A DNA stretch of 11,496 nt, taken from IMG/VR virus record IMGVR_UViG_2541047847_000003, positions 1 through 11,496 of that record; one strand, written 5' to 3'. Position numbers and translations under genes: made by a program. The notes under the pieces are model-generated. The model worked only from the letters and a program-made list of their open reading frames with translations, did not search any database and was not told the origin of the DNA. Within the stretch, counting starts at the first letter, position 1. Every line of letters begins with the position of its first letter. Of the stretch, positions 1 through 11,496 are shown in pieces. This DNA comes from a virus. Lineage: Duplodnaviria > Heunggongvirae > Uroviricota > Caudoviricetes.

Positions 1-95
1 AGTTTGCTCCTGCCATAACGTGAAGAAGCAATGACCTGGTGGTCCGTGACTTCCCTACGCTGGCATTATCCAGATCAGGTGATACGGGTATTTCT
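1..95 (-). promoter_or_regulatory. thiM: 3' part of the thiM TPP riboswitch (aptamer 3' half plus expression platform); thiM start codon lies just beyond the left edge
   Basis: Reverse complement of 1..95 reads AGAAAUACCCGUAUCACCUGAUCUGGAUAAUGCCAGCGUAGGGAAGUCACGGACCACCAGGUCAUUGCUUCUUCACGUUAUGGCAGGAGCAAACU, which matches the well-studied E. coli thiM thi-box leader as I recall it. Confidence 0.85.
82..95. other. attL core: 14-bp ATACGGGTATTTCT, identical to the copy at 11083..11096
   Basis: Exact 14-bp direct repeat at both island ends; flanking bases differ on both sides (81 g vs 11082 a; 96 t vs 11097 c). The repeat lies inside the riboswitch sequence. Confidence 0.75.
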
Positions 96-160
96 TACTA
101 ATTACTTTTACCAGTTGATAATAAATAAGTTTTTAAGAACGCATAAATTAAAAACCTCAG

Positions 161-235
161 AACTGACCACACAACTGACCACACATTTTGTTGAAGCTCT
201 ACGAACAACGACGAACAATAACAAACAAAAGGGAA
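161..235. repeat. attL-proximal arm block: tandem AACTGACCACAC x2 followed by ACGAACAA-type repeats; homologous to 10929..10995
   Basis: AACTGACCACAC at 161..172 and 173..184. The roughly 75-bp block is about 80% identical (by eye) to the block beside int at the other end, in the same orientation. Confidence 0.6.
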
Positions 236-1134
236 ATTTGCTGGTGGTTTTGCTTAACCGTTATCATTTTTCGGCTATCCGTCATGAAGCTGGTGGATGA
301 TCACGGATAACCAGGCATCCACAGCGCCTTAAAAAGCTGAACCCGACAAACATTTCTGCTTATCGGGTCCGATCGCTCTTTCTGCTCGTGGCAGATGAGT
401 TTATTGGGAGAGGCGGAAACATTGTATCAGGCTATCCCCTTTCTGTGCTGATTTGCATAGTTGTATATAGCTGTGCGTCCACCAGACACGCAGGAATGGA
501 GTTTGTGAGGAACTATAAATCCTGCGCAAATTTTCCCGGCCCACTCAAATTGAGTTTTCCGAAAATATCAACGGCTTAGGCCAAAGCCCGAAAAAGGGCT
601 TTGTAAAAAATTAACCTAATACGGTCGCTTTAACCTACGGTAATCGTTCTGCTTCGGTGTGTGTCCCCTCTGCGGCCATCATGACCATGCCATAACAAAA
701 ACCCCATATTCGTGGTTTTTCTGTGTCGGGGCTATTCTGCTGTTGCCGTGCTGGTGGATATTCTCCGGTATGCGACTCCCCATATCGGCATCAGGCCCAC
801 CAGCGTGAAGCGTTTTTCATTTTTCGCGGGTATAAAAAATTGATGGGGCTGGCAGTCCGGAAGACGTCAGGGTACAGAGATTTGACCCGCCCCTCCCTGT
901 GCATAAGCACAATAAGTAACAGAAGGCGGAATTCCGCCCTCGGTACTCACATATGAGAAACGATATTTCTTCCACCGATACCCTTTATTTGGGTATCGCG
1001 AGTAAGCCCCAAAATCTGGGTGTTACTCTTACTACCCAAACTACGGGTGGTTTCCGTAGTTTCATGGTCGAGTTGCAGATCTGCAACTCACCCACCAGCC
1101 AACGCAATTTTGCGTTATCGGGAATATCAGGAAT

Positions 1135-1419
1135 CTACCGCCGCAACCGTTCCGGCTTCCTCCACTGGTAAGTATTTTTCGCGCTCTCCCTCCGTTGTTG
1201 AGAACGGCGACGGTATGCCAGCAACTCAAGGACTCTGATCCGTATGTCGCGCATATCCACGCCGTTAAGCTCGATACCGTCACGGCGCATCATCTCAGCC
1301 ACCACACGCGCGTAATTTTCGGCTATCACGCTGTCCGGCTGCGTGGCCTCCTGTTTGCTTGATGGTTGTTTGATTCCGGTAACGCGGCGGATTAATCCCA
1401 GCAATTCAGATTCTGTCAT
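1135..1419 (-). CDS. Small protein immediately downstream of terS; possible lambda gpFI-like packaging accessory protein
   Basis: ORF of 94 aa. N-terminus MTESELLGLIRRVTG resembles lambda FI MTKDELIARLRSLG, and VVAEMMRRDG resembles the FI C-terminal VAAEMTERG, both from memory. The C-terminal 40 aa are basic and low-complexity. Confidence 0.45.
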   Translation of the reverse strand: MTESELLGLIRRVTGIKQPSSKQEATQPDSVIAENYARVVAEMMRRDGIELNGVDMRDIRIRVLELLAYRRRSQQRRESAKNTYQWRKPERLRR

Positions 1420-1430
1420 AGTGCGCTACG

Positions 1431-1958
1431 TTACTTGTCTTTATTCGGCTGCAACTTATCCGGCACATTTCCGGTAGTTTCCATCAGGTAATCAGCCAGT
1501 ATCTGCGGGAGGTTGTCGTCAACTCCGGCACTGGCATTACAGGCTTTAGCCACTTCCTTTTTAAGTCCATCCAGCATAGCCGGAGTCATCTGTGGGAAGC
1601 GCCTTTGCATGGTAAGCGGCAGACTGTCCATGATAGATGAAATCTGACTCGCCAGTTTGGAAAGAACATACATACAAAACTCTGTATCAATAACGTCGCC
1701 GCGTTCGCGCTCGTTTTTAAGCTCCTGCGCCTCTGCCTGTGCTGTCAGTAATCTGATCCTGACGCGTAAAAGTTCATCGTCATCAATATCGCCCGTTTCG
1801 TTTGTAATCTGACTAATTGCATTGTTAACCCGATTATCTATTACACTGGCAACATCATAGAATGCCTCACGGCCCTTACGCTCGACGGGAATCACTCCCC
1901 ACTTATCAAACGCAGTGGCGCTTACACGGCAACTTTTTGCCATGTTTTTTTTGTTCAT
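1431..1958 (-). CDS. Terminase small subunit, lambda Nu1 family
   Basis: Translation aligns with lambda Nu1: RLLTAQAEAQELKNERERGDVIDTEFCMYVLSKLASQISSIMDSLPLTMQRRFP versus RLTRAQADAQELKNARDSAEVVETAFCTFVLSRIAGEIASILDGLPLSVQRRFP. N-terminal DNA-binding region is more diverged. Start chosen at the ATG giving MNKKN; the ORF track extends to 1982. Confidence 0.85.
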   Translation of the reverse strand: MNKKNMAKSCRVSATAFDKWGVIPVERKGREAFYDVASVIDNRVNNAISQITNETGDIDDDELLRVRIRLLTAQAEAQELKNERERGDVIDTEFCMYVLSKLASQISSIMDSLPLTMQRRFPQMTPAMLDGLKKEVAKACNASAGVDDNLPQILADYLMETTGNVPDKLQPNKDK

Positions 1959-2083
1959 CAGGTGCAATTTCATTGATACCACAACTTAATTACTGTTTCA
2001 GGTTGGTGTATTGATTGTATTTTTCTCTTCTTATTCATAGAGATAGAGCGAACAACAAAACCACCACCAGCCCCCTGAAAATG

Positions 2084-2148
2084 CTCATAAATAGCGAAAA
2101 CCCGCGAGGTCGCCGCCCCGTAGCCTGCCGGATCGCCGGAAAGGACCC
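2084..2148 (-). other. Lambda-type cos site (cosQ-like and cosN; 12-nt cohesive-end sequence at 2107..2118)
   Basis: Reverse complement of 2084..2120 is ACGGGGCGGCGACCTCGCGGGTTTTCGCTATTTATGA, identical to the lambda cosN junction and left end. 2119..2148 matches the lambda right-end cosQ region at about 27 of 30 positions. Lies about 130-150 bp upstream of terS, as in lambda. Confidence 0.85.
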
Positions 2149-2174
2149 GCCAGCCAGAACGGGCCCTAATTTCA

Positions 2175-2558
2175 TCAACCAATCAACTTATAGCGACCAT
2201 CCCGTGCATTGCGACGTACACGCTCAATCTTGAGGCATAGCGCCGCATCTGGCTTTTTGGGGACAGGTACGCGGCAATATTCAGAAGCTCGAGGAATATT
2301 GTTTATCCAGTCGATCACTTCACTTAAATACCAGGCCTTACGCCCTTCCGTAACCTGTACGCGTTCGGGGAACTCTCCACGAGCCTCAAGGTTTAGCAAT
2401 GTGCGACGGCTAAGGGTAGTAAGTTCCATCACCTGATTCATATCAACAAGGCGTTCACTTAAACGCATTTTGTCAGCAATAGCCTTTAATTCCTCTACTG
2501 CTGGATCCGGATACATCATTTCGGCAATTGGCTTAAGGTCATTGTAATGATTCTGCAT
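2175..2558 (-). CDS. AlpA/Vis-family HTH protein (second copy), 127 aa
   Basis: Central segment LTTLSRRTLLNLEARGEFPERVQVTEGRKAWYLSEVIDWI matches the AlpA-type HTH pattern. GGGGGA Shine-Dalgarno 4 nt upstream of the ATG; sits between the decoration gene and cos. Confidence 0.65.
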   Translation of the reverse strand: MQNHYNDLKPIAEMMYPDPAVEELKAIADKMRLSERLVDMNQVMELTTLSRRTLLNLEARGEFPERVQVTEGRKAWYLSEVIDWINNIPRASEYCRVPVPKKPDAALCLKIERVRRNARDGRYKLIG

Positions 2559-2569
2559 TGTATCCCCCT

Positions 2570-2911
2570 TTACACACGAGCCAGCGGCTGAACAGAAATA
2601 CCTGAGCCAACAAACGCGGCAACCTTTGCCGACAGTTCTCTTACAGACTCAGGCCAGTTCAGAGCATCAACATTTAAAACACCTGTCTTATAAACCTGTG
2701 CCTGTGTTTTTTTCGCTGTGTCGATTTGTACAGCGGAAACATAAACCGCTTTGCCTGCGCTCGTTCCATCCCATACCACTAGCGCACCAGTTGCATCTTC
2801 CTGCATCAGTGGCGTAAACGCAGGTATTACCCCTTTATTGGCTGAAAATATCCCCAGCGTAGTAACCAGTGCTTCAGTGCCAGACATGAGTTCAGTGTAA
2901 TGAGTAGCCAT
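2570..2911 (-). CDS. Head decoration protein, lambda gpD-like
   Basis: 113 aa. FTPLMQEDATGALVVWDGTSAGKAV parallels lambda gpD [25 protein letters not shown]; similar length. GGGGGAG Shine-Dalgarno 9 bp after the MCP stop. Confidence 0.8.
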   Translation of the reverse strand: MATHYTELMSGTEALVTTLGIFSANKGVIPAFTPLMQEDATGALVVWDGTSAGKAVYVSAVQIDTAKKTQAQVYKTGVLNVDALNWPESVRELSAKVAAFVGSGISVQPLARV

Positions 2912-2920
2912 TGCTCCCCC

Positions 2921-3967
2921 TTAGCCAATGCGAACGGTAACAAAACGATTGATGCGGGCCGGTATTGGCTGTGGTGCTGAATGTGTCTGCACATATTCAA
3001 TAGCCGGATCACCAGGCACAATATAGTTTTTCGGTGCAAGTTCGGCTTTAGTCAGCCCCATCCGAATTAGCTCCGGATCCTGAATACCGCCATAAGCGAC
3101 AATCCCCTGAAGAGCCGTATTGCCAAGCACCATCAAATCAGGATCAAGGAAATATTTTTCAGTTCCGTCCTCGTCGGTATAACGCCCGCTGTAAACAACA
3201 ATCGCAACATCGCCCATATACCCTTTAAAACTCACCGAATCACCAAGGTCTTTAAGGGCCGTTTCCAGTTCGGAATTAGAACCTCGACGGGTATCCAGAG
3301 CCTCTTTTACAGCTCTGAATGAGCGGTATTTTTTCCATACATTGCCGCCCATAATAATGATATTAGTGACTCCCTCACTAAATTCTGCGTAGCTCTCAAT
3401 ATCATCATTTGGATCAAAAGATCCTTTATCCTTACCTGACCACTCAGCACCGCCAGACTGAGTGATGATATTTTGTGGTTTAATATTCCAGTCCAGTTCA
3501 TAACGTTCAATACCATCGCCCTCAATGATATTTTTCCCCGTTGTGATTGCCTGAACAGCAAGCCATTCAATACGTGCACGTATAGCTTTAGCCTGATTTA
3601 CAATCGCCTGTTTAACTTTAATATTACGCGCCCCAAAAGCATTGTATTGTTCAGGTGATACACCAGCAGGGCGCACAGCTAACTTATTTGGATCAATGCT
3701 GCTTTTCGGTTTCATATAGCCAGGGCGAATTGTTTTTGATTCGTATCCCTCATCTCGTGAAACTTTACTGCCCACCATAGGAGAGCAAAACGCCGCGATC
3801 GGGATATTTGGATCGTCGATCGTATCAAGAATAATGTCTCTCGATTCAAACATTACCGAGCGAGTGAAAAACAAACTGGTAAACAACGCATTTAATTTTT
3901 TTTGCACATCTTCAGCATTAGCCACCTGCACAAGCTGTGTAGGCGAATATAAATCAACCATACTCAT
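2921..3967 (-). CDS. Major capsid protein, lambda gpE family
   Basis: Long collinear similarity to lambda gpE, for example NIITQSGGAEWSGKDKGSFDPNDDIESYA and AVKEALDTRRGSNSELETALKDLG and GDVAIVVYSG. Start set at MSMVDLY (lambda begins MSMYTT) with AAGAGG just upstream; the ORF track start at 4048 is probably an upstream extension. Confidence 0.9.
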   Translation of the reverse strand: MSMVDLYSPTQLVQVANAEDVQKKLNALFTSLFFTRSVMFESRDIILDTIDDPNIPIAAFCSPMVGSKVSRDEGYESKTIRPGYMKPKSSIDPNKLAVRPAGVSPEQYNAFGARNIKVKQAIVNQAKAIRARIEWLAVQAITTGKNIIEGDGIERYELDWNIKPQNIITQSGGAEWSGKDKGSFDPNDDIESYAEFSEGVTNIIIMGGNVWKKYRSFRAVKEALDTRRGSNSELETALKDLGDSVSFKGYMGDVAIVVYSGRYTDEDGTEKYFLDPDLMVLGNTALQGIVAYGGIQDPELIRMGLTKAELAPKNYIVPGDPAIEYVQTHSAPQPIPARINRFVTVRIG

Positions 3968-4132
3968 CCTCTTTACATTCATTACAAATAATTGTGAATA
4001 TATTCTATTACCGATGTCTGCTATGCGAATACATGCAACCAAGTGCAATGTTGTATAAAATCTGCCGTGACAACTTCAGTGCTGATAATTCGTGTTAATG
4101 TATTTACTTCCTTTGGTCGGGATTTATGTAGC

Positions 4133-4171
4133 ATGCCGGAAAATCTATTTTCTTCCGGCATTTTTTTATTT
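4133..4171 (+). terminator. Intrinsic-terminator-like hairpin with T-run on the plus strand
   Basis: ATGCCGGAA (4133..4141), 11-nt loop, TTCCGGCAT (4153..4161), then TTTTTTTATTT. On the minus strand the hairpin has no U-run after it. Confidence 0.45.
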
Positions 4172-4178
4172 GCAGAAT

Positions 4179-4601
4179 TTAAAACGGTATATTATCGCCG
4201 TACGGATCATCATTCCCCGACTGTTGTTTTGCCCTGTTCAGTGCGTCAGTAGCCTGGCCCTGTTGACCTTTTTTGCCGCCCGGTCGCGCCGTTCTGGCAC
4301 TGATTACACTGTCTGCGATAACCTGCCAGCCCTGCCGCGTTTCGCCGTTCTGGCCTGTCCACTGGCTTACCTGCATGTTACCCGCCACGCTCACCAGTTC
4401 GCCTTTGTGGTGTTTTGCCAGTGCGTCGGCCTGTCTGCCAAACGCCAGGACGGATAACCACATCGTCGCCGTTCCGTCATCTGCCTGGCTGCACGGAAGT
4501 GGGACCGCCATACTCGCCATCGTCATTTGTGTACCCTTGCTGGTGGTCTTTAACTGCGGGTCAGCCACCAGCCGCCCGTAAGCCGCTATCTGTGCTGTCA
4601 T
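4179..4601 (-). CDS. Single-stranded DNA-binding protein (SSB-like)
   Basis: 140 aa with an OB-fold-like pattern (WLSVLAFGRQADALAKHHKGELVSVAGNMQVSQWTGQNGETRQ), a Gly/Gln-rich linker and a C-terminal DDPYGDNIPF resembling the SSB DDDIPF tail. Confidence 0.7.
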   Translation of the reverse strand: MTAQIAAYGRLVADPQLKTTSKGTQMTMASMAVPLPCSQADDGTATMWLSVLAFGRQADALAKHHKGELVSVAGNMQVSQWTGQNGETRQGWQVIADSVISARTARPGGKKGQQGQATDALNRAKQQSGNDDPYGDNIPF

Positions 4602-4843
4602 GCTGTCTGCTCTCCGGTTTTAACGTTGATGGTTGTCACCTGTTCCGCTTCGGCAATCTCCCGTTCTGTCAGCGTGGCAAAGTTTGCAGCTGCCGTTGTC
4701 ATGAATGAGCTAATCAGTTCGGGATGTGCTTTCGCATATCCTTCCCCGGCGTTGCGGTCGATGATTTTTATCGACACCCTTAACCAGTGTTCCGTCAAAT
4801 CAAGGGCGTGCGATTGTGATTTTTTTGTGTGCTTCGCTGTCAT
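4598..4843 (-). CDS. Hypothetical protein, 81 aa, translationally coupled to ssb
   Basis: ORF whose stop overlaps the ssb start by 4 bp (ATGA); no recognisable motifs. Confidence 0.45.
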   Translation of the reverse strand: MTAKHTKKSQSHALDLTEHWLRVSIKIIDRNAGEGYAKAHPELISSFMTTAAANFATLTEREIAEAEQVTTINVKTGEQTA

Positions 4844-4895
4844 AGGCTTTATCTCACAGCAGTAAATTAAAATTTTTGCGTTTTAACCCTTCACC

Positions 4896-5116
4896 TGTTC
4901 ACCTTTTGATATTTTATCTTTTAATTCATAATGTTAAGGGGTGAACAGTTTCACAAAAACTATTCACCAACTGTTCACCACTGTTCACCCTTGAAGCTCA
5001 ATAAACAATCAAAAAGGTGAACAGTGAATAGTTTGGTGAACAGTTCATAAATAACTGTTCACCCTATAACATACTGATACAAAAGATATTTATGACAGGG
5101 TGAACAGTGGTGAACA
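4896..5116. repeat. Origin-like iteron cluster: about 10 copies of TGTTCACC/GGTGAACA in both orientations with AT-rich spacers (P4 ori/crr type)
   Basis: TGTTCACC at 4896, 4972, 4982, 5056; GGTGAACA at 4940, 5016, 5035, 5099, 5109; variants at 4961 and 5024. Immediately downstream of the alpha-like gene. Confidence 0.85.
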
Positions 5117-5130
5117 GTTATTCCATAAGT

Positions 5131-6948
5131 TTAATTTTTGCTATCGTCATTAGTGACCGATACACATGATGGCATCCAGTCTTCTGATTCCTCCGTCAGT
5201 GTCACGTTTGAACGCAAACCGTGCTTCGTTTTCCGTTTCATATACTCCCTGCCATATTCCGCCATTGCCCCCGGCATATCTTTACCGAAGCGCGTCAGTG
5301 TTACAGGTTTACCAAACCCATGTGCCCTCATATAAGCCAGATAGGCATGATAGAGATACCTGCGTGGGCTGAATGGCACAATTTCAGCATTACCCACTAA
5401 CAGGCCATCACACATTACCGACGCCATGAGATAGCCGCAGAAGTCCACCAGCGAATCCCCCTCTCGCTTTATCGCCAGTGCTTCTTCAGATTTCTGCTGC
5501 TCATATAACAGGCGTCTGGCTTCGTCCTGGTCAGCAAACCGTGTAAGCAGATGGCGAATCACTACCGCCAACTCACCTTCTATTTTTTCCGCCAGCATTG
5601 GATCGCGTTCGTTCTCCGGTACAACTTCCGAAAAATTGAATATCACCCGACGACGTGAGATCCCCCCGCTGCGGTCACTGAATGACATGGCGTTATTGTT
5701 AACCGCCAGCACTACTGCCGGAATACGCGTTGAGTAGGGGGCTTTGTGTTTCGGGTCAATTGCCACCTTGTCACCGCCTGTAATGGCCTTAATTCCTGCC
5801 CCATCACCAGCGTAGCGGGTCATATCCGGCATGATAATCAGCGAAAAGCCAACCACTAACGCGCGTTCCCTTGCATCTTCCAGCGCCTTCATGCTTGCCG
5901 ATACTGTGTTGGCCTTACCCGCCAGCATGGTGCAAATCTCCGCCATCACGCTTTTACCACTTCCCCCTGGACCTGTTACCTCAATGAATAACTGCCAGTC
6001 GTACCGGTTCGCCAGCACCATGAATAATGCAGCCAGTACGCGATCCGCCTTGCGGTCATTCTCAGCCACCGAACGGCGTAACCACTTCCAGAAATTCGGC
6101 GCATGTGTTGCCAGCGTTTCCCCCTCTGCTGGTGGGCTGAAAGGTAATTCACTGGCAATTAACAACCAGTCGTTTTTGTTATGCTCCCGAAAATTACCTG
6201 TTCTGGTATCAAATACCCCGTTACTGAATCCAATCAGGTTACGGGCTGTATTCCCCATTACAGGCAAACTTAACTTCATGGTATCGACCGCCGATTTAAT
6301 GGCGTTCTGCGAATAGCTGATCTCTGCATCAATGAAAATCTGCGCCATAGCTCGCTGTAATTCTTTATCCTGTACTGGCTCCCATACAACGCCGTTGTAA
6401 TGGTGAACAGTGTCAGAGTCAGCATGAATCGCCAGTTCACCGCCATAATGTGCCAGGAGAACTTCGCCGCGTTGACTTGCTCCCATCTGGTTAAGCGCCA
6501 GTGATGAAGCGTTATCGTCTTTTACCCGCTCTTTTTTCTTTACAGGCAGTTCAACTACCTTTTTCTTTTCCGCCAGCTCTGCCCGTTCACGTTCCAGATA
6601 TTCGCGCCAGTTCTCCCGTTTCTGGCTGTGCATTCCTTCAGGGTAATAATCAGCATCCCTGACACCTGCCGCTGCCAGTTTCTGCCCGATGGTATTAACA
6701 AGCCCCGGACGCAATAACCCCGCCTGATAGAGACGCACGCGATAGCGTCCGTCCGGTACGATTTGCAGGTTGTCCAGTTCGGCAAGTTGTTGCTCTCCAA
6801 GCCAGACAGGAGGCACGTTATCGCCAGCCAGTCGCCCGTCCTGTTCCTGCCACTGCTTCGCATGTGCCCACGCATCACTACCCGCAAAAATGATGACTTC
6901 CGTCATTTTGTCACGCGGCTGGTGTTTTAAATTTGGCGCTTTTTTCAT
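5131..6948 (-). CDS. P4 alpha-like replication protein (primase/helicase family, D5-type P-loop NTPase)
   Basis: Walker A GPGGSGKS and a Walker B-like hydrophobic stretch; adjacent TGTTCACC iterons. Start set at the ATG giving MKKAPNL (GGAGAGAG upstream); the ORF track start at 6963 is a GTG. No primase catalytic motif was identified by eye. Confidence 0.8.
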   Translation of the reverse strand: MKKAPNLKHQPRDKMTEVIIFAGSDAWAHAKQWQEQDGRLAGDNVPPVWLGEQQLAELDNLQIVPDGRYRVRLYQAGLLRPGLVNTIGQKLAAAGVRDADYYPEGMHSQKRENWREYLERERAELAEKKKVVELPVKKKERVKDDNASSLALNQMGASQRGEVLLAHYGGELAIHADSDTVHHYNGVVWEPVQDKELQRAMAQIFIDAEISYSQNAIKSAVDTMKLSLPVMGNTARNLIGFSNGVFDTRTGNFREHNKNDWLLIASELPFSPPAEGETLATHAPNFWKWLRRSVAENDRKADRVLAALFMVLANRYDWQLFIEVTGPGGSGKSVMAEICTMLAGKANTVSASMKALEDARERALVVGFSLIIMPDMTRYAGDGAGIKAITGGDKVAIDPKHKAPYSTRIPAVVLAVNNNAMSFSDRSGGISRRRVIFNFSEVVPENERDPMLAEKIEGELAVVIRHLLTRFADQDEARRLLYEQQKSEEALAIKREGDSLVDFCGYLMASVMCDGLLVGNAEIVPFSPRRYLYHAYLAYMRAHGFGKPVTLTRFGKDMPGAMAEYGREYMKRKTKHGLRSNVTLTEESEDWMPSCVSVTNDDSKN

Positions 6949-7244
6949 TTCTGCTCTCTCCACGCGGCAATCATGTTTTTCAGTTCCTGTAGTTTTTTAT
7001 CCACATCCACACGTGACACATGGTTATTTCTGGAAGTCGGGATTTCCCGCCGGAATCTGCAAATAAAGATCTCCACGTTCAGCGAACTAAGAAATGAATA
7101 GCCATCACGAATAAAATACACACGGTCAAACATCAGTTCTTTTACCGTTACTCTGTTACCGTTCTTATCCAGATAAATAGCGCCGGGGATAATTTTGGGG
7201 TGTGCATAACCGCTGGCAGTCAAGCCAGATAAATATGTTCTCAT
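6945..7244 (-). CDS. Hypothetical protein, 99 aa, translationally coupled to the alpha-like gene
   Basis: Stop overlaps the alpha start (ATGA); no recognisable motifs. Confidence 0.55.
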   Translation of the reverse strand: MRTYLSGLTASGYAHPKIIPGAIYLDKNGNRVTVKELMFDRVYFIRDGYSFLSSLNVEIFICRFRREIPTSRNNHVSRVDVDKKLQELKNMIAAWREQK

Positions 7245-7250
7245 GATTAT

Positions 7251-7571
7251 TTATCCCCGATTTGAATCAGTATTCGCTTTCTTTATGGCATTTAATGCAT
7301 CTGTGGCATTTTCAATGGTGCACCGTAACGAAATATCAAACTGCCCAAGCATTGCCAGTAACAAACCGATATTACCCATATCAATGCGCATAGCCTTTTC
7401 GTCATAGTCCTCATTTTCTGACGCATGCCACATCAGACTACCAATTGACGCAACAGCCATTGATATATTGTCAGTAGCCCCATCCGCAGCGGAATAAACC
7501 TTTTTAGCAATATCATGCTCACAGTTAAAATGCGGATTAATCAGGTACTGGTAATTTGACATATCAGGCAT
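7251..7571 (-). CDS. Hypothetical protein, 106 aa
   Basis: ORF in the same operon; its start overlaps the stop of the upstream 67-aa ORF (ATGCCTGA). Confidence 0.55.
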   Translation of the reverse strand: MPDMSNYQYLINPHFNCEHDIAKKVYSAADGATDNISMAVASIGSLMWHASENEDYDEKAMRIDMGNIGLLLAMLGQFDISLRCTIENATDALNAIKKANTDSNRG

Positions 7572-7767
7572 GGCACACCCCCTGACGAATACGGGCGGCG
7601 AATACCATCACGCAGCCAGCCGGGGATTGCTGGCGTGCTTCCTGTTCGCTGGTGGCCACGATGTGAATCACGCGCGGTTGTGCGGTGCTCAGGGCGATAA
7701 AACGCCAGATGTATTTATTCAGGTCGTGCGAGTCCCGCCCTTGCGGGTGTGTGGTATGATTTCTCAT
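7564..7767 (-). CDS. Hypothetical small protein, 67 aa, first gene of the replication operon
   Basis: Internal ATG of the 320-aa track ORF, preceded by GAGG; the sequence upstream in that frame looks non-coding. Stop is coupled to the next gene. Confidence 0.45.
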   Translation of the reverse strand: MRNHTTHPQGRDSHDLNKYIWRFIALSTAQPRVIHIVATSEQEARQQSPAGCVMVFAARIRQGVCHA

Positions 7768-7863
7768 AGCTACCTCGATACGCTTTCTATCGTTGGTGGT
7801 TAGAAGCCCGGTTAGTGTTAGCGCACTGCCGGGTTTCGTCGTTTCTGCACCTTGCATCAACAA

Positions 7864-7917
7864 GGTGTTGAACACCAATTTAAGCCTAGGTGTTAAACAC
7901 GTCAAGTGTTGAACACT
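7864..7917. promoter_or_regulatory. Three operator-like inverted repeats (GGTGTTGAACACC, GGTGTTAAACAC, AGTGTTGAACACT) in a divergent promoter region
   Basis: Repeats at 7864..7876, 7889..7900 and 7905..7917. The third overlaps a candidate -35 (TTGAAC) placed 17 bp from CATACT for the plus-strand gene. Confidence 0.6.
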
Positions 7918-7966
7918 TATTTTTTTTCCTGCATACTGCATTTGTTTTTTGTAAGGGGTACACAAC

Positions 7967-8146
7967 ATGGCGACAAAAGCAGTAAACGCAAAATCACAAA
8001 CAGTTGCGGCAAGGGTTCCGCATGAAGTTATGAACAATGTTGAGGCGGTAAAAATGCCTGGTGAAAGTACAGGGCAGTTTGTAACAGCAGCATTAAAGCG
8101 AGAAGTTGAATACCGCCAGCGTCGCAAGGCCAAAGAGCAGGAGTAA
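7967..8146 (+). CDS. Small ribbon-helix-helix-like protein, 59 aa; candidate repressor
   Basis: Below the ORF-track length cutoff. AGGGG Shine-Dalgarno 8 nt upstream. Pattern QTVAARVPHEVMNNVEAV...GESTGQFVTAALKRE fits a beta-strand/helix/helix RHH layout. Confidence 0.5.
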   Translation: MATKAVNAKSQTVAARVPHEVMNNVEAVKMPGESTGQFVTAALKREVEYRQRRKAKEQE

Positions 8147-8203
8147 CCATCACCAGCGCCGTGGTGCGGTGAACTGTGGCGCACAGGGTTACAGGTATCT
8201 ACG

Positions 8204-8383
8204 ATGACTGACAAATCATTAAAGAAATTATCCTCATCCAAGAAAAAACAACGCAAAAATGCGGTAAACGAACATGAACCGGAGAGATTCGCACCATGTG
8301 CGTTTGTCCTTGAGAAGTACCTTAAAGAGTATTCTAGGAAAATACGCTCATTGCAGGCATGGCAGCGAATCGAGCCAGACTGA
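8204..8383 (+). CDS. Hypothetical small basic protein, 59 aa
   Basis: ORF found by hand downstream of the RHH-like gene and before the plus-strand terminator; weak Shine-Dalgarno. Confidence 0.3.
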   Translation: MTDKSLKKLSSSKKKQRKNAVNEHEPERFAPCAFVLEKYLKEYSRKIRSLQAWQRIEPD

Positions 8384-8447
8384 TAGCATTGCCCACCAGC
8401 CAACAACCTGGTATTCTGGATATGCTCAAGTTTAGTGTTATGCCACT

Positions 8448-8477
8448 GGCGACCGCCCTTGGTCGCCTTTGTTTTAT
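8448..8477 (+). terminator. Rho-independent terminator (plus strand)
   Basis: GGCGACC, loop GCCCTT, GGTCGCC, followed by TTTGTTTTAT. Confidence 0.6.
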
Positions 8478-8494
8478 GTGTCATAGCTCCCCCC

Positions 8495-8719
8495 CTACGC
8501 TGCCTTACCTGAATTAACGCGGTCACGGCTTTGCACCCAGTCCATAACTTCGGAAAGCAACCAGCCTACAGAACGCCCCCCAAGATTACGGCGAGACGGA
8601 AAGCCCCCTTTCTTCTCCAGTTCGTAGCGTGTAGTACGGCTGACGCCTGTTAACTTACGACATTCATCTTCACGAATTACGCGATCTGTTAGTGATTGAA
8701 ATTGTGTATTTTGATTCAT
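8495..8719 (-). CDS. alpA: AlpA-family transcriptional regulator / excisionase-like HTH protein
   Basis: 74 aa; RKLTGVSRTTRYELEKKGGFPSRRNLGGRSVGWLLSEVMDWV matches the AlpA/Vis-type HTH pattern; GAGGG Shine-Dalgarno. Confidence 0.8.
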   Translation of the reverse strand: MNQNTQFQSLTDRVIREDECRKLTGVSRTTRYELEKKGGFPSRRNLGGRSVGWLLSEVMDWVQSRDRVNSGKAA

Positions 8720-8822
8720 AAAAACACCCTCGAACGTAACCGAACAAGGGCATCTTATTTACCATAGCAGTTGGTGCAATATTGGAAAAATAAACTTTAT
8801 TCTAATTTATCGTTCTCCATGA

Positions 8823-9677
8823 TTAATTTTCATTAGATAACATTTTTCTTATTTTTTCTAAAGAATCGCTGCGCATTATTTTTTCTAAGAAGGGTTTTAC
8901 AGTCTGAGCAATAGCAAAGGTGTCCTTTTCACCATCAGGATACAAAGATACGGCAAGCACCCCTAATGAAATTTTTCTATCTGTAGACAACTCCCAAGAT
9001 AATAAGTCAATTAATGGGATTATCTTATAATCAATAATTTTACGTCGTATGCTCTCCCAACTTCCTGCAATTGGTTTGTCTGGCTCAACAATTGAAAGTT
9101 CACTACGCCATTTTGGTAATAGTTTTGTAAACGCTTCAATCAACTCATCATCTCTGTTATGTAGTAAGTCAACAGAAACAAGCATATTATCTAATGTATC
9201 AGAAAGGAGATTCACTGGTTCACGCATCACAGCCCAAAACATCCCATTATCTTCTGATATTAAACTTCCAACCATCTCATTATCTATGATGATTGGTTTA
9301 TCCTTCCAATATCCTCTTTCCGCAGTCAGTTTATTAATCATTGATATATCAAACCTTGTTACAGGTTTAATTCCATCATCATAACTTAGCTCAATTAACT
9401 TCGGCTGCACTTTATGGTCATATTCTTTTTGTTTATCACAAAACCAATCGTCTTCTTTCAGCTCTCCAAATGGATCCCCATAATTATTATGCAACGGGTA
9501 TTCAGCACCAAACATAAAACCATATTCAGGCATCTCAGAATGTTTCATTGTTAAATCATCTTGTCGCCAATATAATTGGCGAAATAGATCTTTATCCGAC
9601 AAGTTTTCTAGGCAATCATATTTGCCTAAATCAAATGACTTTGGTAAATCTTTTTTACTATTTACTTTTTTCGTCAT
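8823..9677 (-). CDS. Hypothetical 284-aa protein, AT-rich cargo gene immediately downstream of int
   Basis: Long ORF whose start overlaps the int stop by 4 bp. Visibly more AT-rich than the neighbouring genes (not computed). No motif I recognise. Confidence 0.7.
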   Translation of the reverse strand: MTKKVNSKKDLPKSFDLGKYDCLENLSDKDLFRQLYWRQDDLTMKHSEMPEYGFMFGAEYPLHNNYGDPFGELKEDDWFCDKQKEYDHKVQPKLIELSYDDGIKPVTRFDISMINKLTAERGYWKDKPIIIDNEMVGSLISEDNGMFWAVMREPVNLLSDTLDNMLVSVDLLHNRDDELIEAFTKLLPKWRSELSIVEPDKPIAGSWESIRRKIIDYKIIPLIDLLSWELSTDRKISLGVLAVSLYPDGEKDTFAIAQTVKPFLEKIMRSDSLEKIRKMLSNEN

Positions 9678-10894
9678 TGTATCCCTCTCAATATCACAAT
9701 ATTTTCATTATATCCTGCAATCATATCAAGACGCTCAACCCATAGATGCAGTGCGTCCCGTTTCGCCTGCAAATAGCGTGAATGGTTATAGGTTTTTTGC
9801 TGACCTGGCATCTGATGCGCTGTGATGTGCTCCACGATATGCGGATCGACACCTAAATCATTCAGCATAGTTGTAAACGTGTGTCGGAAATCATGCAGCG
9901 TCCAGTGTTCCTGCTTAAGCCGCTTATGCGCATTTCGTCCATATTGCGCCACCGTGGTATCTTTTTTCAGTTCGCCGAGTAATAACCCAGTGTGTGCGTT
10001 TTGCTCCACCAGCTTCTGAATGAACGGCAAAATACCATCAGGAATAGGTCGGAATATTGTTACCTTCGTTTTGCTGTGCTCTTTTGGCACTGTCCACAAC
10101 ATTTCTTTCAGATCCCATTCTTTGATCTCTGAAAGTCTGATCTCTGCCGTTCTGCACCCGAACACAATTAACAAGCGCATTAACGCACTGTAATAGGGAG
10201 CGAACACATCACCATCAATAGCGCGTAGAATTTCTTTTAGTTCGCTGTTGCTGTGCACTCTCTCGCGGATTTCTGCTCTCTTACCCACATCAGTAACGAT
10301 CAAATCGTCCAGGGCGTTGCTAAACGCGTAGCGCCGCCTGCGGCAAAACTTTAGCGCCTGTTTGCATGTCTGCATGACATGGCCCGCTGCTACTGGTGCT
10401 TTTTTTCGTACGCGGTCAAAACATGCGATCCACTGCCTTGTATCACACTTATCAAGGGGAATTGCCCCGATATGGCAAATGATGTGCTTATCCATACGCT
10501 GCACCAGCTTTATGTAATCTTTGCGGTTATCCTTCGCGTATTCCTCCAGCCAGTAGTTAATCGCTTCCTTCACCGTAACGGGTTTTAGTGCTTCCTGTAC
10601 TGTGGCGCACAACTCATACCGAGGGTTTTTACCCTCAGCCAGCCATGCCCGGCACTGTGTTCGCTTTTCCCTTGCAGATTTCAGCGACAATTCCGGGTAA
10701 GCCCCCAGCTTTAACCGCTCTGCGGCAACCTCACGGCCTCCCGTTCGGTACCGGAAATACCAGGTTAATTTACCTCCCTTTGAGTGTTTAATCTCCAGCC
10801 CGCCCCCGTCGGAGTAAAAACGTTCTTTTTCTGCCTGGACAGCCACCAATTTTTTTAACGTTGAATCGCTCAGTTTGTTTAGTGCTTTTCCCAC
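9674..10894 (-). CDS. int: Tyrosine recombinase, P4-type integrase family
   Basis: 406 aa. N-terminal arm-binding-type region (GGKLTWYFRYRTGGREV...LGAYPELSLKSAREK); C-terminal catalytic motifs HDFRHTF and YNHSRY; GTG start. Confidence 0.9.
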   Translation of the reverse strand: MGKALNKLSDSTLKKLVAVQAEKERFYSDGGGLEIKHSKGGKLTWYFRYRTGGREVAAERLKLGAYPELSLKSAREKRTQCRAWLAEGKNPRYELCATVQEALKPVTVKEAINYWLEEYAKDNRKDYIKLVQRMDKHIICHIGAIPLDKCDTRQWIACFDRVRKKAPVAAGHVMQTCKQALKFCRRRRYAFSNALDDLIVTDVGKRAEIRERVHSNSELKEILRAIDGDVFAPYYSALMRLLIVFGCRTAEIRLSEIKEWDLKEMLWTVPKEHSKTKVTIFRPIPDGILPFIQKLVEQNAHTGLLLGELKKDTTVAQYGRNAHKRLKQEHWTLHDFRHTFTTMLNDLGVDPHIVEHITAHQMPGQQKTYNHSRYLQAKRDALHLWVERLDMIAGYNENIVILRGIQ

Positions 10895-10928
10895 TATCAG
10901 ATCCTCTTTTCAGTCCTCCAGCCTCAAA

Positions 10929-10995
10929 AAACTGACCACACAACTGACCACACATTTCGCTGAAACTCGGCAAACAACAACGAACAGCAACAAAC
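10929..10995. repeat. int-proximal arm block: tandem AACTGACCACAC x2 plus CAACAACGAACA-type repeats; homologous to 161..235
   Basis: AACTGACCACAC at 10929..10940 and 10941..10952, about 30 bp upstream of the int start. Confidence 0.6.
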
Positions 10996-11082
10996 GAGAA
11001 AGCCAATTAAATCATTGTATATCAAACATATACACAAACAATCACGAACATCCCAGAACTACAAAAAACACTAAATGAGAAA

Positions 11083-11096
11083 ATACGGGTATTTCT
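11083..11096. other. attR core: ATACGGGTATTTCT
   Basis: Identical to 82..95; continuous on its right with chromosomal thiM leader sequence. Confidence 0.75.
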
Positions 11097-11127
11097 CAGC
11101 CTTCACAAAGAAGGGCACCCCGAGTCG
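11083..11127 (-). promoter_or_regulatory. thiM: 5' part of the thiM TPP riboswitch aptamer, separated from its 3' half by the island
   Basis: Reverse complement reads CGACUCGGGGUGCCCUUCUUUGUGAAGGCUGAGAAAUACCCGUAU, the 5' half of the thiM aptamer including the conserved CUGAGA element. Confidence 0.8.
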
Positions 11128-11223
11128 TTTGGTTGCGATAATAAATCGCAGAGGAGGATGGTAATGTCCAGCGCACGCGTTGTAAACGGGGAAAAACGGC
11201 GGTATTACAATAACGTTGTGAAA

Positions 11224-11496
11224 TTATTTGATATAAGAATCCAGCACCTTCAGAACGACATCCAGATCTTCTTCTCGTTTTAGCTCATCCCCCTGGTGAA
11301 CGATGTGTTCCGTCAGATGGCCTTTAATCACTTCCCGCATCAGACCGTTTACCGCGCCACGGATAGCAGCAATCTGTTGTAAAACTGCAGCGCATTCATG
11401 CGGTTCGTCGAGCATTTTCTTGAGCGCCACGACCTGGCCCTGAATCTTACTGGCACGCGCTTTCAGTTTCTGTTTATCACGGATTGTATGAGACAT
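11224..11496 (-). CDS. rcnR: Ni/Co-responsive transcriptional repressor RcnR (CsoR/RcnR family)
   Basis: 90-aa translation [61 protein letters not shown]... matches E. coli RcnR as I recall it; complete CDS ending at the window edge. Confidence 0.85.

Follow-up and report, generated by a model that had tools for sequence, protein, structure and literature searches.

A PICI-type phage satellite integrated within the aptamer of the thiM TPP riboswitch and the predicted loss of TPP control over thiMD

Elements integrated in tRNA and tmRNA genes, such as the P4-type CP4-57 in ssrA, bring along a duplicate of the gene end that they displace, and thereby rebuild a working RNA gene. The island described here resembles these elements in its arm-binding P4-type tyrosine integrase, its AlpA regulator, and a conserved structured-RNA target that is shared across genera. 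However, it duplicates only 14 bp, supplies no 5′ half of its target, and leaves the RNA element broken. Other elements interrupt protein-coding loci; SpyCIM1 reportedly interrupts the mutS-mutL operon of S. pyogenes, and phi10403S is said to sit in comK of Listeria. The likeness of the present island to these two lies only in the logic of the sequence, by which host genes are parted from their expression signals and precise excision restores the connection, whereas the interrupted target is a cis-regulatory RNA instead of a coding sequence. The concept of regulated gene integrity has been described (PMC7192596), and the present locus conforms to it at the sequence level, in that insertion breaks the target and precise excision restores it. 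An attachment site within a conserved non-coding RNA that is neither tRNA nor tmRNA is also used by phiEf11, which attaches in ffs, the 4.5S RNA gene (PMC12540744); the RNA class, host, and recombinase are different from those described here, and ffs is a stand-alone RNA gene, whereas the thiM target is an mRNA leader.

The closest described element is EcCI224 (CP018948.1, 10.6 kb), which was listed in Table S1 of Fillol-Salom et al. (2018, ISME J; PMC6092414) with the att core AGAAATACCCGTAT and the location 'frmR-thiM'. The word riboswitch is absent from the text and supplement of that study, and a search of open-access full text yielded no literature in which a riboswitch is connected with this att site or with an integrative element of any kind. 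The att site and the element family have been known since 2018, and the location of the site in a riboswitch is a modest but real new point.

The window analyzed in the present study is a stretch of 11,496 nucleotides. Its position 1 is the nucleotide preceding the start codon of thiM, a minus-strand gene, and its other end reaches the start of rcnR; its features are listed in Table 1. The 14-bp core occurs exactly twice in the window as a direct repeat flanking an island of 10,987 bp (96-11082), and reads AGAAAUACCCGUAU on the thiM-sense (minus) strand. The original prediction placed this island inside the thiM TPP riboswitch, and proposed that the flanks would be contiguous in island-free E. 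coli, with one copy of the core and a continuous riboswitch. This was borne out: 1-95 and 11097-11496, joined by the deletion of 96-11096, form 495 nt that are contiguous at 100% identity in LF82, NRG857C, and others, and the PGAP features at this site in island-free genomes are a TPP riboswitch and rcnR. The contrary case, an island-free isolate with non-contiguous flanks, was examined and does not apply. In island-free genomes, the match to window 1-260 breaks off exactly at base 95. A single core in the empty site and identical cores at both island junctions constitute the attL/attR arrangement of a tyrosine-recombinase element, and precise excision would, from the sequences of the two flanks, restore a perfect riboswitch.

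Table 1. Features of the window, with positions on the strand as given
Feature	Position	Strand	Remarks
thiM-proximal junction	1..95	-	Core copy, pyrophosphate-sensor arm (P4/P5), P1 3′ strand, anti-SD/SD expression platform, SD
Core copy 1	82..95		ATACGGGTATTTCT; equals EcCI224 core in PMC6092414 Table S1
Island arm by thiM (P′ arm)	96..254		Tandem AACTGACCACACA repeats 161-185; IHF-like TATCAACTGGTAA 108-120, minus strand
Strongest terminator-like hairpin in the window	339..370	-	14-bp stem, then AGCUUUUUAA; z = -3.2
Second terminator-like hairpin, thiM-sense	922..941	-	Conserved in C21, EcCI224, and the ST131 island
Conserved satellite protein, function not assigned	1135..1419	-	phrog_1561
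Small terminase subunit, lambda Nu1-like	1431..1982	-	
Second AlpA-family helix-turn-helix regulator	2175..2558	-	
Head decoration protein, lambda gpD-like	2570..2911	-	
Major capsid protein, lambda gpE-like	2921..4048	-	Start codon uncertain
Single-stranded DNA-binding protein (SSB)	4179..4601	-	
Dense GGTGAACAG iterons and long inverted repeats	4895..5130		Just downstream of primase gene
Primase/helicase, D5-type	5131..6963	-	D5_N, DUF5906, Pox_D5
DUF4222 protein	6945..7244		Named from relatives
Icd-like small protein, 67 aa	7564..7767	-	Annotation of relatives mapped onto ORF
AlpA-type excisionase/regulator	8495..8719	-	
DUF6387 protein	8823..9677	-	
Tyrosine integrase	9674..10894	-	Arm-DNA-bind_3 + Phage_integrase
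Integrase-side arm	10895..11082		Tandem AACTGACCACACA repeats 10930-10954
Core copy 2	11083..11096		Integrase-side junction
5′ aptamer half	11097..11132	-	P1 5′ strand, P2 5′ strand, P3 hairpin, CUG of CUGAGA; co-oriented with int
thiM promoter region, position inferred	11138..11186	-	Candidates TTTACA-17-TACCAT and TATTAT -10 element
rcnR, chromosomal flank	11224..11496	-	

The reconstructed empty site scored 71.2 bits against the Rfam TPP model RF00059, for which a full aptamer must reach the gathering score of 54.3 bits, whereas the scores of the two halves, both below this threshold, were 34.4 bits on the thiM side (window 35-122, minus strand) and 20.7 bits on the integrase side (window 11033-11132, minus strand). 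These scores uphold the earlier proposals that the island lies inside the aptamer with its core duplicated at the junctions, and that neither junction has a complete aptamer. The pyrimidine-sensor and pyrophosphate-sensor arms, at 11097-11132 and 1-81, are separated by the 11-kb island and are not joined by P1 in one transcript. According to the structure line of the model, the core comprises the AGA of J3/2 (CUGAGA), the P2 3′ strand, and J2/4 up to its third base; it had been described as a part of the thi-box aptamer, and while it is within the aptamer, it sits just 5′ of the classical thi-box. The promoter-side junction retains the P1 5′ strand, P2, P3, and CUGAGA, the P2 3′ strand being present there because the core is duplicated, and the thiM-side junction retains P4/P5, the P1 3′ strand, and the SD/anti-SD platform. 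The replacement of CUGAGA by GUAAGA at the thiM-side junction may be read directly from the sequence, as had been noted. Regarding the thiM start, which was also thought to be kept at this junction, the AUG lies just outside base 1; the Shine-Dalgarno sequence, the expression platform, and the aptamer 3′ half are retained as described.

In the island-bearing loci L001-L003, no match to RF00059 at the gathering score was found and no riboswitch feature was annotated. An island-borne substitute for the lost 5′ half of the aptamer was sought by a global alignment of the island end with the chromosomal upstream sequence, which revealed no extended homology. Weak P1/P2-like pairings in the cmscan alignment were considered as a replacement and rejected because they are not conserved in EcCI224. 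Since the binding of TPP requires both sensor arms within one RNA and the aptamer is split, we infer that neither half RNA can bind TPP and that the TPP control of thiMD would be lost as long as the island is integrated.

The best account is that a PICI-type satellite of the EcCI224 integrase/att family integrated through tyrosine-recombinase site-specific recombination at the 14-bp core. The integrase gene is located beside one junction, each arm carries two tandem copies of AACTGACCACACA (chance expectation, 0.26 matches), and the reconstructed attP core, together with the island-side TTTCT, is a perfect 18-bp palindrome, AGAAATAC-CC-GTATTTCT. The palindromic core, which provides inverted core-type sites, and the repeats, as putative arm-type sites in both arms, are by their sequence the expected appearance of a tyrosine-recombinase att site. 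A lone 14-mer repeat in 11.5 kb is not overwhelming on its own, and it may be argued that, instead of a recombinase core, it represents a target-site duplication of transposition or a repeat that arose by chance. We assign a negligible probability to this explanation and regard it as refuted: a second copy of ATACGGGTATTTCT appeared in 0 of 200 shuffles of the window, the same junction positions are found in independent islands with different cargo, including those of Salmonella, an arm-binding tyrosine integrase adjoins the core, and the att core has already been published. The IHF-like reading of TATCAACTGGTAA in the thiM-side arm is based on WATCAANNNNTTR, which we take to be the IHF consensus. 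The 10-mer ATTTATTATC, which is shared by the island arm and the thiM promoter region, was also considered as a -10 element carried by the island and rejected; its counterpart in both EcCI224 and the ST131 island is ATTAATTATC, its -35 element is poor, and it fits the IHF-like TATCAA motif better.

Nearly all of the island genes are on the minus strand, in the same direction as thiM. When the criteria for Gram-negative PICIs were taken from Fillol-Salom et al. (PMC6092414), the island was found to conform in having int, alpA, and primase/replication genes accompanied by a probable origin, in being transcribed in one direction, and in falling within the size range of ~10-15 kb. A dedicated attC site is also present, with the core and site being as for EcCI224, and all of the occupants examined are satellites. 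With regard to phage structural and lytic genes, the absence of which is another of these criteria, the island has homologues of those for the capsid (gpE-like), decoration (gpD-like), and small terminase, and genes for a tail, lysis, a portal, or a large terminase were not found in it. With its head genes limited to these three, the island falls outside the capsid-forming PICIs (cf-PICIs), the complete head module of which comprises the capsid, protease, portal, head-tail connectors, small and large terminase, and HNH. Judged from its gene content, the island is a PICI-type phage satellite and a mosaic new member of the EcCI224 integrase/att family. The iterons and inverted repeats next to the primase gene are probably the satellite replication origin. 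A weak match to SymR, with 32.8 bits where the gathering score is 61, was detected at 7768-7840 on the plus strand, where it adjoins the start of the Icd-like gene, upstream and antisense, and another of 23.8 bits was present in a Salmonella island (L007, 4909-4980, minus strand); this element could be an antisense RNA governing the icd-primase operon.

In a comparison with the EcCI224 locus (CP018948.1), the integrases were identical at 403 of 407 residues and both junctions were alike. The two islands also have in common the int-DUF6387-alpA-icd-DUF4222-primase backbone, a single transcription direction, and a length of ~11 kb; however, EcCI224 carries a ClpP-capsid fusion and a DUF1441 protein, whereas the window has lambda-like gpE, gpD, and Nu1 homologues and SSB. 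The EcCI224 and ST131 islands lack window ~296-640, an extra ~330-420 bp near the thiM end, a part of which is present in C21. This segment separates the integrase-specific arm from the conserved end region of the island, and carries the terminator-like hairpins 370 to 339 and 588 to 573.

The closest relative of the window is strain C21 (97.5% identity over 93% of the window), and the same int/att module is accompanied by varied cargo at the thiM site: the lambda-like module in the window and C21, the ClpP-capsid fusion in EcCI224, ST131, and ST80, and, in UMNF18 (L022, 1366-16015), a cf-PICI-like island with the same integrase type and genes for an HK97 capsid, protease, portal, connector, HNH, and small and large terminase, some of which are frameshifted. 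The region 254-8687 also occurs at 95-97% identity in PICIs at other chromosomal sites, such as those in FDAARGOS_1258 and GB089, whereas 96-254, which these PICIs do not share, is specific to the EcCI224-type integrase module. The presence of 254-8687 at other sites indicates that satellites exchange the integrase/att module, and that the island is a mosaic, the site-specific module of which consists of 96-254 and ~8687-11082.

Among 5,426 complete E. coli genomes, the contiguous 150-nt leader was found in 5,338, the thiM-side island junction in 76, and the integrase-side junction in 72; the island family thus occupies the thiM site in ~1.4% of these genomes, including that of an O25b:H4-ST131 blood isolate. 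Genomes of O157:H7 and some others match the leader only to base 134 of 150, with bases 135-150 corresponding to window ~11116-11146, and the rcnR-side flank is without a match in ~400 genomes; these partial matches show that the promoter-bearing sequence upstream of the aptamer varies among lineages. Salmonella enterica encodes, beside rcnB, integrases that share 66-74% identity with that of the window and are preceded by the aptamer 5′ half and an identical 14-bp core, the site having been read at the integrase-side junction because the island there exceeds the 10-kb flank. Relatives of the integrase at other sites show 66-67% identity beside abgR or cspD and 57% in Cronobacter, and, set against the identical core in Salmonella, this indicates that the targeting of the riboswitch is a trait of one integrase subclade in two genera. 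In representative genomes (one per species), neither a relative in an integrase scan nor a match to a degenerate thiM-side junction pattern was found, and the representatives of E. coli and Salmonella apparently carry empty sites. Two of the Salmonella islands at the thiM riboswitch (L016 and L017, 10001-21233) are longer than 11 kb and contain a second integrase-like gene and two genes with ProQ/FinO domains.

Regarding the consequences for the host, thiM and thiD constitute one operon, all of which is governed by the thiM riboswitch through translation and Rho-dependent termination (PMC5499598), and thiD does come after thiM, as had been noted for K-12. The RNAfold prediction for a chimeric leader with a short island-derived 5′ end was the anti-sequestering fold, in which the anti-SD is paired to AGGGAAG, and the probability of the SD being unpaired was ~0.62, versus 0.48 in the intact leader; with longer 5′ ends, long-range pairing with island sequence hid the SD. 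In this model, the thiMD leader would adopt the anti-sequestering (ON) fold because it lacks the P1 5′ strand, and any transcript would therefore be translated irrespective of TPP.

Whether such transcripts are abundant depends on the sequences that now precede thiM, for which promoters and terminators were called by consensus scans. The terminator-like hairpins that close the island on the thiM-sense strand would keep the transcription of thiMD low. The takeover of thiMD by island transcription, which had been put forward together with the loss of TPP control, is doubtful because the best terminator-like hairpin (370 to 339) is located between the island genes and thiM. The nearest promoter-like site, TTTATG-18-TATTAT, is 28 nt upstream of the core and matches at 8 of 12 positions, no site with at least 9 of 12 was found in 1-1500, and the last 245 nt of the island on the thiM side contain only a weak, non-conserved promoter-like match. 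From these sequence features, thiMD transcription is probably low, and low, TPP-independent expression of thiMD is favored, although the 8 of 12 site counts against this and AT-rich DNA can fire weakly.

An outward promoter in the thiM-side arm, or read-through, may instead provide useful constitutive, TPP-blind expression of thiMD, in which case the carriers would remain thiamine prototrophs. The co-orientation of the island genes with thiM, the weak site upstream of the core, and the predicted open SD of the chimeric leader are in line with this, as is the long use of the site in E. coli and Salmonella, during which integrases diverged to 66-74% identity and which suggests a low cost. The 8 of 12 site is altered in the EcCI224 and ST131 variants, nothing better was found in 1-1500, and the thiM-sense strand carries two to three terminator-like hairpins upstream; we consider constitutive expression to be a tentative possibility. 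Another explanation, to which we give somewhat less than an even chance, is that the insertion is polar and silences thiMD, with the carriers being thiamine/HMP auxotrophs or slow growers that are tolerated through gut thiamine. The promoter is 11 kb from the operon, terminator-like hairpins are present with no convincing promoter having been found, and thiD is co-transcribed with thiM (PMC5499598). The state of the genes speaks against silencing: both thiM and thiD were annotated as intact, with no pseudogenization, in all four island-bearing genomes in which the stretch covered both genes (that of UMNF18 took in only part of thiM), even beside one island that is decaying. Intact thiMD beside the islands is compatible with the continued use of the operon, and also speaks for constitutive expression.

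At the integrase-side junction, int and the thiM promoter region have the same orientation, the promoter region now faces int, and no terminator-like site was found between the two. The thiM promoter, which is left at this junction together with the pyrimidine-sensor arm, may drive int, and the host-driven transcription of int is plausible from this arrangement. We consider it highly probable that a PICI-type satellite split the thiM aptamer at its core, leaving thiMD TPP-blind behind a leader in the ON fold and with transcription that is probably low, and with int possibly driven by the thiM promoter. A further proposal is a two-way coupling: as long as the island is integrated, int would be driven by the thiM promoter, with thiMD being TPP-blind or silent, and spontaneous or helper-triggered excision would restore regulation by thiamine, such that the island acts as a reversible switch of thiamine synthesis and salvage and riboswitch aptamers represent, beside tRNA and tmRNA genes, a class of conserved RNA att sites; we regard this proposal as improbable.

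The locus represents a natural case of a mobile element destroying a well-studied riboswitch in E. coli (~1.4% of complete genomes) and Salmonella. Since a catalogued PICI attachment site proves to be the aptamer of a textbook riboswitch, testable predictions on thiamine regulation may be made for the carriers of these islands, namely, that thiMD would escape feedback by thiamine in these strains and that they may depend on thiamine. The value of the riboswitch to the cell may be measured in strains that form natural pairs, one carrying the island and the other lacking it. The conserved target of one subclade of P4-type integrases is a riboswitch aptamer and, in contrast to elements in tRNA genes, the target is not repaired. 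In addition, the riboswitch is silently dropped by annotation pipelines in island-bearing genomes.

Two minor observations concern the thiM-side junction and leader. An 89-aa ORF at window 31-300 (plus strand) spans the junction antisense to the riboswitch remnant and is annotated as a hypothetical protein in island carriers (L021, 6367-6636; L022, 206-475); it is probably spurious. In another genome (L004, NZ_CM172609.1), the thiM leader at 4001-4067 matches window 1-67 only, the remainder (55-150 of the leader query) is ~5 kb away, and IS3 copies and a DUF6453 gene are located between the two leader parts, which looks like a second, IS-linked way of disrupting the thiM riboswitch.
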